From the IMG/VR virus record IMGVR_UViG_3300023119_000004: a stretch of 64,000 bases of DNA; one strand, 5' to 3'. Positions 1,077 to 63,271 of this stretch are shown piece by piece; the stretch's first letter is position 1, and every line of letters starts with the position of its first letter. Both the position numbers and the translations under genes were made by a program. The notes beneath the pieces are model-generated. The model saw only the letters and a list, made by a program, of their open reading frames with translations. It searched no databases and was not told where the DNA came from. The DNA is from a virus. Taxonomy: Duplodnaviria; Caudoviricetes.

Positions 1077-1279
1077 TATCTTTTTCCTTGATTATTAATA
1101 CAAACTGCTTGTGTTCCAGGTGGAAAATATTCAGTACCTGTGCCTAGTTCGTTTAGTAAAATATCACGACCTATAAAGCACTCTTCCATAGTGTCAAACT
1201 CGTAGTATGCTTCGATATAAGGCTCATCGTAACCTGCTTGGGCATTAAACATTATATTGATAAAAACTAAAAACCACAT
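1076..1279 (-). CDS. Small hypothetical protein with hydrophobic N-terminus
   Basis: Likely start MWFLVFINIMF at 1279 (TAATG overlap with PRTase stop) rather than the track's 1318. Confidence 0.6.
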   Translation of the reverse strand: MWFLVFINIMFNAQAGYDEPYIEAYYEFDTMEECFIGRDILLNELGTGTEYFPPGTQAVCINNQGKR

Positions 1280-1824
1280 TAGTATTGACCAACATTTTCC
1301 CAAGGATAAACAAGCCAAACATCTTCTTCAAACTTATTAACCGTGTCGCAATGATAGTTAACACACCCATCAAACTTTGATGAAAGGTTATCTGTTAATA
1401 CTGCGAAACGAACGTTATTACCCCATACCTTCTCCCATTTAGGATCGTTAGGTAAACAACCTGAACGCCAGTCGTCCTTGATCCAATTAAATGTAGCACC
1501 AGTATCGTTGATATCGTCTACAATAAGAATTTTCTTTTCTAGTGGTCCGCCTGTAACACGGTCTTCTTCTTTTTCACGATATCCAAAGGCATCTTCTGCC
1601 ATCCAAAAATTGCTTTCACTTTCTCTGTTATCATCACGCAGGCTTACCTTAAGTGCTTCGCAACGAATGCCGGTCATGTTTGAAATGATAGTAGCAGGCA
1701 CATTACCGCCTCGTGTAATACCTACAATGTAATCAGGCTTCCAATTATCATAATACATTTGTAAAACAATGTTATTACACATACGTTCTACATCTGCCCA
1801 ACTGTAATATTTCTTTTTAATCAT
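1279..1824 (-). CDS. Type I phosphoribosyltransferase (xanthine/guanine PRT-like)
   Basis: IVGITRGG motif and PRPP-binding loop ILIVDDINDTGAT; C-terminal WLVYPWE. Confidence 0.85.
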   Translation of the reverse strand: MIKKKYYSWADVERMCNNIVLQMYYDNWKPDYIVGITRGGNVPATIISNMTGIRCEALKVSLRDDNRESESNFWMAEDAFGYREKEEDRVTGGPLEKKILIVDDINDTGATFNWIKDDWRSGCLPNDPKWEKVWGNNVRFAVLTDNLSSKFDGCVNYHCDTVNKFEEDVWLVYPWENVGQY

Positions 1825-62167: not shown

Positions 62168-62761
62168 TTACATTGATGTATTTACTGGACCGTATGATTT
62201 AGTATTCATTGCTTTCATAGGATTAGCACCCAAACTTAACGTTACCCTTGGACCTATAATCATAGGTTTGTGATTTGTTAGTCTTGGTAATAAAATTGCA
62301 TCACCCGGATTTAGTGTGTAGATTGTTTTTTCTTGAGTATCTTTATCAGTTACTAAGTAAGCAACCTGTCCGTATCCTTGAATTAGTAATACAGTTTCAT
62401 AGTCATTATGAAGCATTAAACTATTGTGTGTGTCACTCATGCTGTAAAATAAACTAGCATTGAAGTGAGTTTCAGTTTCGTGTCGATCATAGTTTGATTG
62501 GAAGTCAAGCATATACTTTTGCAATCTCTTATCAGATCCAACATCGGGCAAGTGCGATCCGCCTCTTGCTAATTCATCGACATTAGTAATTGTTGCTTTG
62601 TATTGATTTACTTCTACAAGAGTTTCAAAATTAATATCGTTTTTTGCATCGGGAAAAGCATTACGATAAACAGCAACGTTTAGATTTTTACGATCTTCGT
62701 TTACTTGACTCCAATCCATCTTACGCCTCGTAGATTGCAGAGTTAGCACCGTGTTCTGCAC
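62168..62761 (-). CDS. JmjC/cupin_4-like protein
   Basis: H.D..TVLLIQ.YG...L.PGD...LP....H...R.TLS; start may be downstream (MDWSQV). Confidence 0.7.
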   Translation of the reverse strand: MQNTVLTLQSTRRKMDWSQVNEDRKNLNVAVYRNAFPDAKNDINFETLVEVNQYKATITNVDELARGGSHLPDVGSDKRLQKYMLDFQSNYDRHETETHFNASLFYSMSDTHNSLMLHNDYETVLLIQGYGQVAYLVTDKDTQEKTIYTLNPGDAILLPRLTNHKPMIIGPRVTLSLGANPMKAMNTKSYGPVNTSM

Positions 62762-63170
62762 ATTCTACCTTAACGCAATAACAACGATTATCTGTCTTTT
62801 CTCTAATTAGTTTGTCTGCAAAATTAAATGCGTGTTCTGCAAACTTCTCTGCACCAACACCATCAAATATTCTTAGTTCTGCTAGACCCAGTGCTTCTAG
62901 TTTTTGTAATTCTTCTAAAAATGGATCTGCTCGATCTACTGCTACCTTGTGATCAAAACTATCTTCTAGCCAAGCCTTTAGTGGTTTTAGTCCTCCAAAG
63001 TCTACTGCCCAGTTTTTGTTATCTAGTTCATCACAACCAAATGTGAATGTAAATGCTAGACTGTAACCGTGTAGTAGATGGCAATGTGAATGATCTGCGT
63101 TTGGTTGTCTAAAGACTGCCGATAGGCCAATATTATGACCATAATGTTTTGTACTGTAATGTTTACCCAT
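62721..63170 (-). CDS. queD: 6-carboxytetrahydropterin synthase
   Basis: C..LHGY, VDFGGLK, FDH, GAE.FA, EH..NSA. Confidence 0.9.
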   Translation of the reverse strand: MGKHYSTKHYGHNIGLSAVFRQPNADHSHCHLLHGYSLAFTFTFGCDELDNKNWAVDFGGLKPLKAWLEDSFDHKVAVDRADPFLEELQKLEALGLAELRIFDGVGAEKFAEHAFNFADKLIREKTDNRCYCVKVECAEHGANSAIYEA

Positions 63171-63176
63171 TATTAA

Positions 63177-63222
63177 CTCCTATATATAATGGCGGCAGAA
63201 TTAGAAGGGGTGACGCCAAGTC
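63177..63222 (-). ncRNA. Candidate cis-regulatory RNA (H-type pseudoknot, preQ1-I-like) in queD 5' UTR
   Basis: UGGCG-UCACCCCUUCUAAUUCUGC-CGCCA stem-loop; loop CUUCUA can pair with UAGGAG (SD). Confidence 0.55.
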
Positions 63223-63242
63223 CTATATTAAACATATTGTAT

Positions 63243-63271
63243 AGTATATACAATTTATTTGCTTTTGTCAA
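63243..63271 (-). promoter_or_regulatory. sigma70-type promoter for queD operon
   Basis: TTGACA-17-TATACT, giving a 5' UTR of about 65 nt. Confidence 0.8.

Follow-up and report, generated by a model that had tools for sequence, protein, structure and literature searches.

The preQ1 riboswitch family, as reviewed in 2024, comprises three classes and five motifs, all of them repressors, and that review mentions neither phages nor queD (PMC11625349). In class I aptamers, a uridine of loop L1 and an adenine of loop L3 read the edge of the ligand other than that read by the specificity base, and helix P2 hides the Shine–Dalgarno (SD) sequence (PMC10622847). Phage riboswitches have been called rare; marine T4-like myoviruses carry glutamine riboswitches, and the examples reported from phages to date belong to classes borrowed from bacteria (PMC9004378). 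We analyzed a stretch of 64,000 nucleotides (nt) of DNA (hereafter the window; IMG/VR record IMGVR_UViG_3300023119_000004) from an uncultivated jumbo myovirus of a salt marsh, which has T4-like structural genes and a DNA polymerase sharing 51% identity with the Sinorhizobium phage Phosso enzyme and 47% with the Atu_ph07 enzyme. Ahead of its queD-like gene lies one copy of a probable cis-regulatory RNA, conserved in uncultivated jumbo myoviruses and predicted to form the 5′ end of their queD mRNAs, and it is near certain that this is a conserved, structured, and queD-specific leader RNA. From the sequences compared here, we assign a probability of roughly 0.6 to its being a metabolite riboswitch of a new preQ1-I-like class; if a divergent member of class I is counted together with this reading, a metabolite riboswitch becomes highly probable.

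The presumed regulated gene (62721–63170, minus strand, as are all features of the leader) encodes a QueD-like protein of 149 amino acids belonging to the PTPS family (PF01242 at 6.3e-14). Its score of 33.7 bits against TIGR03367 (QueD), under the cut-off of 89.25, marks it as a divergent QueD; isolated phages have QueD-like proteins with 50–55% identity to it, and a PDB sequence search with it gave no match. An earlier note made from this DNA alone had placed a sigma70 promoter, an untranslated region (UTR) of about 65 nt, and a GC-rich island upstream of a que gene, and features that correspond to these are present, the promoter and the UTR as predictions. The genes around the leader all lie on the minus strand, and the 84-nt gap between the upstream neighbor, a 2OG-Fe(II) oxygenase gene ending at 63255, and queD takes in a promoter-like site, a GC-richer core, and the SD, leading to the ATG start codon (63170–63168). 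The promoter-like site (63243–63271) consists of TTGACA (63271–63266), a 17-nt spacer, and TATACT (63248–63243), matching 11 of 12 consensus positions, and it predicts a transcription start near 63236 and thus a 5′ UTR of about 66 nt. The GC content is 0.45 in the leader core, as opposed to 0.18–0.28 in the flanks. We found no terminator-like site in the window leader, and transcription attenuation was therefore dropped as an explanation.

The core of the leader element spans 36 nt (63225–63190) and reads as a compact H-type pseudoknot. P1 pairs AGG (63224–63222) with CCU (63208–63206), and at its fourth position U63225 stands opposite U63205 as a U.U mismatch. L1 (ACU, 63221–63219; neither its C nor its U varies in alignments A2 and A4 described below or in class A, the class of the window copy) leads into the 5′ strand of P2, UGGCG-U-CA (63218–63211), which pairs with UG-C-CGCCA (63197–63190). 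P2 thus has five outer base pairs (bp) (UGGCG/CGCCA, 63218–63214 with 63194–63190), the invariant U of a U.C mismatch, whose invariant C is in the 3′ strand, and then two inner pairs, C-G and A-U. L2 is CC (63210–63209), and its second C (63209) is invariant in every aligned copy and lies directly 5′ of the 3′ strand of P1; the L3 tail UCUAAUUC (63205–63198) ends in an invariant UC. The SD, AGGAG (63181–63177), is 8 nt 3′ of P2.

This assignment departs from that of the earlier note, which had rightly suspected a variant preQ1-I-like pseudoknot, a conserved and covarying H-type fold with preQ1-I-like traits being present, but had misassigned its helices. The stem UGGCG/CGCCA that it called P1 exists; since its 5′ strand lies within the P1 loop, as in H-type pseudoknots, it is P2, extended by C-G and A-U past the conserved U.C mismatch, and the conserved P1 AGG/CCU had been overlooked. 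The loop U and C that were proposed as ligand contacts are the two partners of that mismatch inside P2. The proposed pairing of loop CUUCUA with UAGGAG can form in the window (−2.4 kcal/mol) but is not a family feature, because the 3′ strands of P1 in most classes (CCGCU, CCACU) cannot pair with AGGAG.

More than 595 IMG/VR contigs encode a QueD that is 86–99% identical to that of the window. The leader element is shared by 74 of the 81 queD leaders that were compared side by side, and about 240 distinct motif-bearing leaders are found among IMG/VR contigs. Both stems vary widely in sequence. P1 is (A)AGG/CCU(U) in class A and GAGG/CCUC, GCGG/CCGC, GUGG/CCAC, CCGG/CCGG, UCGG/CCGA, or GUCG/CGAC in other classes, whereas P2 changes from the UGGCG/CGCCA of class A to GGCAU/AUGCC, GACGC/GUGUC, AUGC/GCAU, AACG/CGUU, and others, with the innermost A-U pair replaced by G-C in one clade. 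Within class A, the fourth P1 pair is A-U, G-C, U-A, or C-G, and P2 has G-C to A-U changes at two positions, the variants UAGCG/CGCUA and UGACG/CGUCU being compensatory.

For a formal test of the fold, copies of equal length were aligned by MAFFT, gap-free and with no structural input. A MAFFT alignment of all length classes together (A1) misplaced the 5′ strand of P1 and was replaced by the gap-free length classes and an anchor-based parse; a model built from the long classes (R1) scores the short class A copies weakly and mixed with noise, and it was not used for class A. An alignment of 17 sequences (A2) has 93.1% of its cells paired and double changes at 10 of 12 pairs, as against 29–57% of cells paired in slid controls, in which partners were moved by 1–3 columns. 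A scan of IMG/VR for the long-class pattern, which specified unpaired invariant bases and GG/CC only and did not consult queD, returned at least 120 loci, from which 82 distinct sequences were aligned (A4). Here, 93.7% of cells are paired (32–55% in slid controls), and there are 230 compensatory cells compared with 64 in column shuffles, a value reached by 0 of 500 shuffles. Taken over the family alignments, compensatory changes occur at 9–10 of 12 pairs, including six of the seven pairs of P2 and three to four pairs of the 5-bp P1 of the long classes. The covariation of P1 and P2 that had been suggested as a check is thus strong among the queD leaders of related phage contigs, and it is this comparison of relatives that marks the motif as more than a chance arrangement.

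The unpaired positions behave in the opposite manner. In the columns of A2 and A4, P1 joins 2–6 with 22–26 and P2 joins 12–16 with 40–44, followed by the U17.C39 mismatch, C18-G38, and R19-Y37. L1 starts N-C-U, with C8 and U9 invariant and the first base being A, U, or C; L2 is N20-C21, with C21 (63209 in the window) invariant; and L3 reads U-A-n-A-n-A-n-U-C, in which A, U, and C do not vary. In all, about 11 unpaired bases are fixed, among them C8, U9, U17, C21, A29, A31, A33, U35, C36, and C39. This combination of varying stems and fixed loops is the pattern seen in aptamers. L3 measures 7 nt in class A, where P1 has 3–4 bp, and 10–11 nt where P1 has 5 bp, and the longer L3 with the longer P1 fits a strand running along the P1 groove.

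The motif is closely tied to queD. Of at least 120 long-class matches, all of those listed have at least four of five P1 pairs and 115 have a QueD-like open reading frame (ORF) downstream by BLAST; among the other five listed, three run into a queD-like ORF by sequence and two carry leaders identical to ones that precede queD. The class A pattern, scanned for likewise with queD left aside, was found upstream of queD in 116 of 117 matches, the remaining one being cut by the contig end, such that among the 237 matches listed in both scans all but this one precede queD or a queD-like ORF. The pattern is expected by chance 0.01 times in the 64-kb window and occurs once, and large relative contigs likewise have one copy each. 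Upstream of P1, hexamers resembling −10 boxes or the T4 late box TAAATA cluster at a distance of 4–22 nt over 243 distinct regions and fall at 4–12 nt in 126 of the 243, as opposed to 16 of 243 in a control window; with promoter-like boxes so close, the pseudoknot would be at the extreme 5′ end of the mRNA. Blastn searches with the locus and with two leaders gave no DNA-level match in isolated phages.

A scan of genomes from 185,579 prokaryote species produced eight motif matches, three of which have the pairings. These three all precede a queD-like gene and lie on phage-like contigs binned into Bacteroidota metagenome-assembled genomes (MAGs). The other five lack P2 pairing and were rejected as chance matches. 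Two sites in gammaproteobacterial MAGs (L109:5370-5404 and L114:201-235) are GC-rich and intergenic, with a P1 of 5 bp and a P2 displaced by 3 nt; they were taken as probable chance. The two are homologous to each other, and that of L109 is between RND-type transporter genes. In one Haliscomenobacter-binned contig (L111:1-1250), a HIT-family gene and a gene for a 282-amino-acid PP-loop protein (SGGLDS motif) that matches no family model come before the pseudoknot motif, and a B12-type radical SAM gene follows queD.

Two further observations concern the mobility of the leader. Three relatives (L001–L003) encode a QueD 99% identical to that of the window and yet have another leader class (GUGG/CCAC P1, AUGC/GCAU P2, and a long tail) in the place of window 63171–63236, from which we infer that leader and coding sequence have recombined. 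One contig (L066) has the whole leader twice (633–677 and 1430–1474), including the pseudoknot, the SD hairpin, and the AGCAUG start context; one copy precedes queD and the other a 236-amino-acid ORF (705–1415) without a Pfam, PHROG, or NCBIfam match, the only gene other than queD seen behind the motif.

T4-like phages use protein–RNA translational control, and the pseudoknot might accordingly be imagined as a site for a phage or host protein, either a translational operator or an mRNA-stability element, by analogy with the leader pseudoknot of T4 gene 32. The AU-rich unstructured stretch from the pseudoknot to the ribosome-binding site in class A would suit such a site. In T4 gene 32-type autoregulation the gene product binds its own leader, but the gene downstream of the present motif encodes a PTPS/QueD-family enzyme without known RNA binding, and no conserved neighboring regulator gene was seen. 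The motif is also tied to one metabolic gene across very mosaic neighborhoods and travels with it, one QueD 99% identical to that of the window (L002) follows a different leader class, and the invariant loops, covarying stems, and preQ1-I-like layout are aptamer traits. We consider a protein site decidedly improbable.

The earlier note also proposed that P2 hides the SD and that the element represses queD by feedback. The SD is outside P2 in all classes, 7 to about 30 nt downstream, and a third helix argues instead for activation. In the window, P3 pairs CCAUUAU (63192–63186), of which CCA (63192–63190) is held in common with the 3′ strand of P2, with AUAAUGG (63173–63167), which spans the queD start codon; the SD lies in the P3 loop. 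Its predicted stability is −5.0 kcal/mol, compared with −6.5 kcal/mol for the P2 hairpin alone. More generally, the 5′ arm of P3 comprises the last 3–4 nt of the P2 3′ strand and the next 3–6 nt, and the 3′ arm covers about −6 to +6 around the AUG. The arms differ between classes (UGUCAUUG/CAAUGGCA, UGCCAUUGUU/AACAAUGGCA, GUCAUC/GAUGGC, CCCAUA/UAUGGG, and GCCAUAU/AUAUGGC).

P3 averages 6.9 bp over 106 distinct leaders and 5.6 bp when start regions are swapped, and none of 300 permutations reaches 6.9, a statistic that ignores the shared ancestry of the leaders. Of 81 leaders, 78 retain the pair adjoining CAU:AUG, be it U-A, A-U, or C-G. In 47 of 47, the partner of column 42 of the P2 strand is the second base of codon 2, this pair changing between C-G and G-C as the codon specifies Gly or Ala. 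Some classes add a hairpin that masks the SD and overlaps P2, either CCUAUG/CAUAGG (with the compensatory variant CUCUAUU/AAUAGAG) or ACUCC/GGAGU. P2 and P3 share nucleotides and so cannot form together, and P2 and the masking helices being mutually exclusive gives the layout of a ligand-ON translational switch.

The two states implied by mutually exclusive, covarying P2 and P3 speak against a conserved structure that does not switch, such as an mRNA-protecting 5′ end or a ribosome standby or enhancer site, with a window copy that is possibly weakened or inactive. Such a role would agree with the P1 of the window, with its 3 bp and U.U mismatch, and with the minimum-free-energy folds of class A, which do not sequester the SD strongly. 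Class A copies commonly have U.U or C.U in P1, however, indicating that these variants are tolerated rather than decayed, and we regard a non-switching element as very improbable.

As a metabolite riboswitch of a new preQ1-I-like class, the pseudoknot would act as aptamer to a small molecule bearing a guanine-like face, which the invariant L2 cytidine would read as in preQ1-I; that cytidine is the single feature from which such a ligand is deduced. Candidates are a 7-deazaguanine (for example preQ0, preQ1, or 7-carboxy-7-deazaguanine [CDG]) or a pterin, for example the substrate or product of QueD. Bound ligand would lock P2, freeing the start codon and turning queD translation ON, and without ligand P3 would compete with P2 and mask the AUG. 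Among riboswitch readings, the sequences lead us to favor this ON direction over OFF by roughly two to one. A more specific proposal is that of a phage-native class in which a preQ1-I-like pseudoknot has been rebuilt, with a long P2, the U.C mismatch, and an L3 ending in UC, to sense a ligand other than preQ1 (CDG, preQ0, the pterin substrate or product of QueD, or guanine). By switching queD ON through start-codon release, it would time a FolE–QueD–QueE branch to a 7-deazapurine without QueC or DpdA. We hold this proposal tentatively, the odds being somewhat against it as a whole.

Several points weigh against the metabolite riboswitch of a new class. Biosynthetic genes are seldom under ON switches, and the statistics of P3 are subject to the shared ancestry noted above. 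The single-sequence fold of the window leader is no more stable than shuffles (z = −0.16), and the P1 of the window is short and mismatched. Salt-marsh metatranscriptome contigs contain queD but fragment at the leader, giving neither a transcription start nor a strand. L3 ends in the invariant U35-C36 in place of the ligand-contacting A of preQ1-I, the nearest invariant A being 3 nt upstream, and the conserved U at the first L1 position of preQ1-I is missing, the base there being variable. Rfam 15 had no relevant match in the window, either over 1.5 kb or over an 81-nt stretch (E up to 10). Lastly, a class I preQ1 pseudoknot can sterically repress translation at up to 10 nt from the SD (PMC10018353), and with a spacer of 8 nt in the window an OFF reading is possible.

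These last points bear on the alternative that the element is a divergent but ordinary member of preQ1-I, in which binding of preQ1 or preQ0 represses queD as end-product feedback, through pairing of the SD or a steric block 8 nt upstream of it. The topology is the same, P1 has 5 bp in most classes, the invariant C and the A-containing tail are present, a que gene lies downstream, and feedback would suit a biosynthetic gene; class I steric repression is moreover known at spacers up to 10 nt (PMC10018353). The earlier note had left undecided whether the element matches an Rfam model, and it does not: besides the result for the window, 20 relatives gave no match at E up to 10, and the best relative, a 79-nt stretch of L064, reached 10.4 bits (E 5.2) against PreQ1 (RF00522), for which the gathering cut-off is 39. 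That alignment takes in P1, the U-C after P1, UCCC before the 3′ strand, and AUAcAAA, and leaves the 3′ part of the model unmatched. The models for preQ1-II and -III, guanidine-III, SAM-II and -V, and fluoride found nothing in the window or relatives at E up to 10. Ordinary membership is also at odds with the seven-pair P2, the 2-nt L2, the UC end of L3, the variable first base of L1, an SD that is never in P2 at spacers of 7 to about 30 nt, a CUUCUA:UAGGAG pairing that is not conserved, and a covarying P3 that competes with P2 and predicts ON. We therefore judge it unlikely.

The earlier note linked the element to the supply of a DNA-modification precursor. Five large relatives (G001–G005, 156–356 kb, the 356-kb one being 96% complete) encode FolE, a QueE-like radical SAM enzyme, and QueD, and the QueE-like enzyme (phrog_2076, 4.7e-55) is encoded near FolE. 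In these five we found no TGT or DpdA and, one weak PP-loop match aside, no QueC, and the link to DNA modification was dropped on this ground. A gene for a Gpt-like phosphoribosyltransferase (window 1279–1824, minus strand) goes with the FolE/QueE/QueD module, an association seen in these jumbo phages (the window, L355, and L106 for the phosphoribosyltransferase) and in Synechococcus phage BUCT-ZZ01. A Gpt-like enzyme without QueC or DpdA hints at a nucleotide-level route for a 7-deazapurine, and the phage pathway might stop at CDG or supply host enzymes. Radical SAM proteins number 8–18 per contig in G001–G005, unusually many for a phage.

Other features of the locus were noted. A perfect inverted repeat, AUUGUAUA-UAC-UAUACAAU (63232–63260, minus strand), overlaps the −10 box just past the stop codon of the upstream gene and is the main feature of the minimum-free-energy fold there. 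It may serve as an operator, or else form a hairpin, lacking a U-tract, at the 3′ end of the upstream mRNA. In class E leaders (L123, L056, and L074 are examples), about 60 nt before the queD ATG, the L3 tail (TTTACA/ATACAA) and the SD-hairpin loop (TATAAT) are 17 nt apart. This resemblance to a near-consensus sigma70 promoter inside the element could be a coincidence, or mark a second, unregulated promoter making an aptamer-less transcript. The ORF after queD (62168–62761, minus strand) is JmjC/cupin-like and, if translated from its GTG start, shares 41 nt with the end of queD; downstream of it are genes for a glycosyltransferase (phrog_1962), a glucosaminidase, and a eukaryote-type phosphomannomutase.

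A full-text search of the literature found no description of the motif, and to our knowledge riboswitch classes confined to viruses are essentially without precedent. Here, a covarying pseudoknot of roughly 40 nt accompanies a single gene in hundreds of jumbo-phage contigs from the environment, and an alternative helix predicts activation. If it does bind a ligand, the smallest known aptamer fold would be extended to a new specificity or regulatory direction, the uncharacterized phage FolE–QueD–QueE pathway, together with its phosphoribosyltransferase, would gain a handle, and a compact ON switch would become available for engineering.

Among known RNAs, guanidine-III (mini-ykkC) resembles the queD motif in being a small H-type pseudoknot (about 40 nt) in which ACN follows P1 and a stretch rich in C precedes the 3′ strand of P1; neither gene context nor Rfam (E up to 10 on short stretches) connects the two. 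The add adenine riboswitch is a translational ON switch in which the helix that masks the translation start draws on the 3′ strand of an aptamer helix. The 3′ strand of P2 is likewise shared with a start-masking helix, and ligand binding would free the start site as in add, although the aptamer there is a three-way junction and here a pseudoknot. The glutamine riboswitches are, similarly, riboswitch-like RNAs of T4-like environmental phages, but they belong to a bacterial class (glnA RNA) (PMC9004378), whereas the queD motif, the three phage-like contigs in Bacteroidota MAGs aside, had no bacterial counterpart in the scan of prokaryote genomes.

The closest resemblance is to preQ1-I. Both are small H-type pseudoknots at the 5′ end of a que-gene mRNA, with P1 and P2 in the present motif each backed by compensatory changes. 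In both, P1 has at most 5 bp and is closed by a G-C pair, pyrimidines follow P1 directly, the L3 tail contains conserved adenines (AUAnAAA), and control is translational, in the present motif by prediction. The invariant cytidine that immediately precedes the 3′ strand of P1 occupies the place of the class I specificity base (PMC10622847). The queD motif differs in the two loop positions given above, in a P2 of seven pairs with an invariant U.C mismatch where preQ1-I has three to four pairs, in an L2 of 2 nt, in an SD outside the aptamer, in a P2 3′ strand that competes with a start-codon helix and predicts ON where the known preQ1 classes are all OFF, and in being found only in phage contigs. 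Since it falls short of the family model and of two of the three contact features, we conclude that it follows the same plan as preQ1-I without being a member, and by analogy with class I the L2 cytidine (63209) would be the candidate specificity base.

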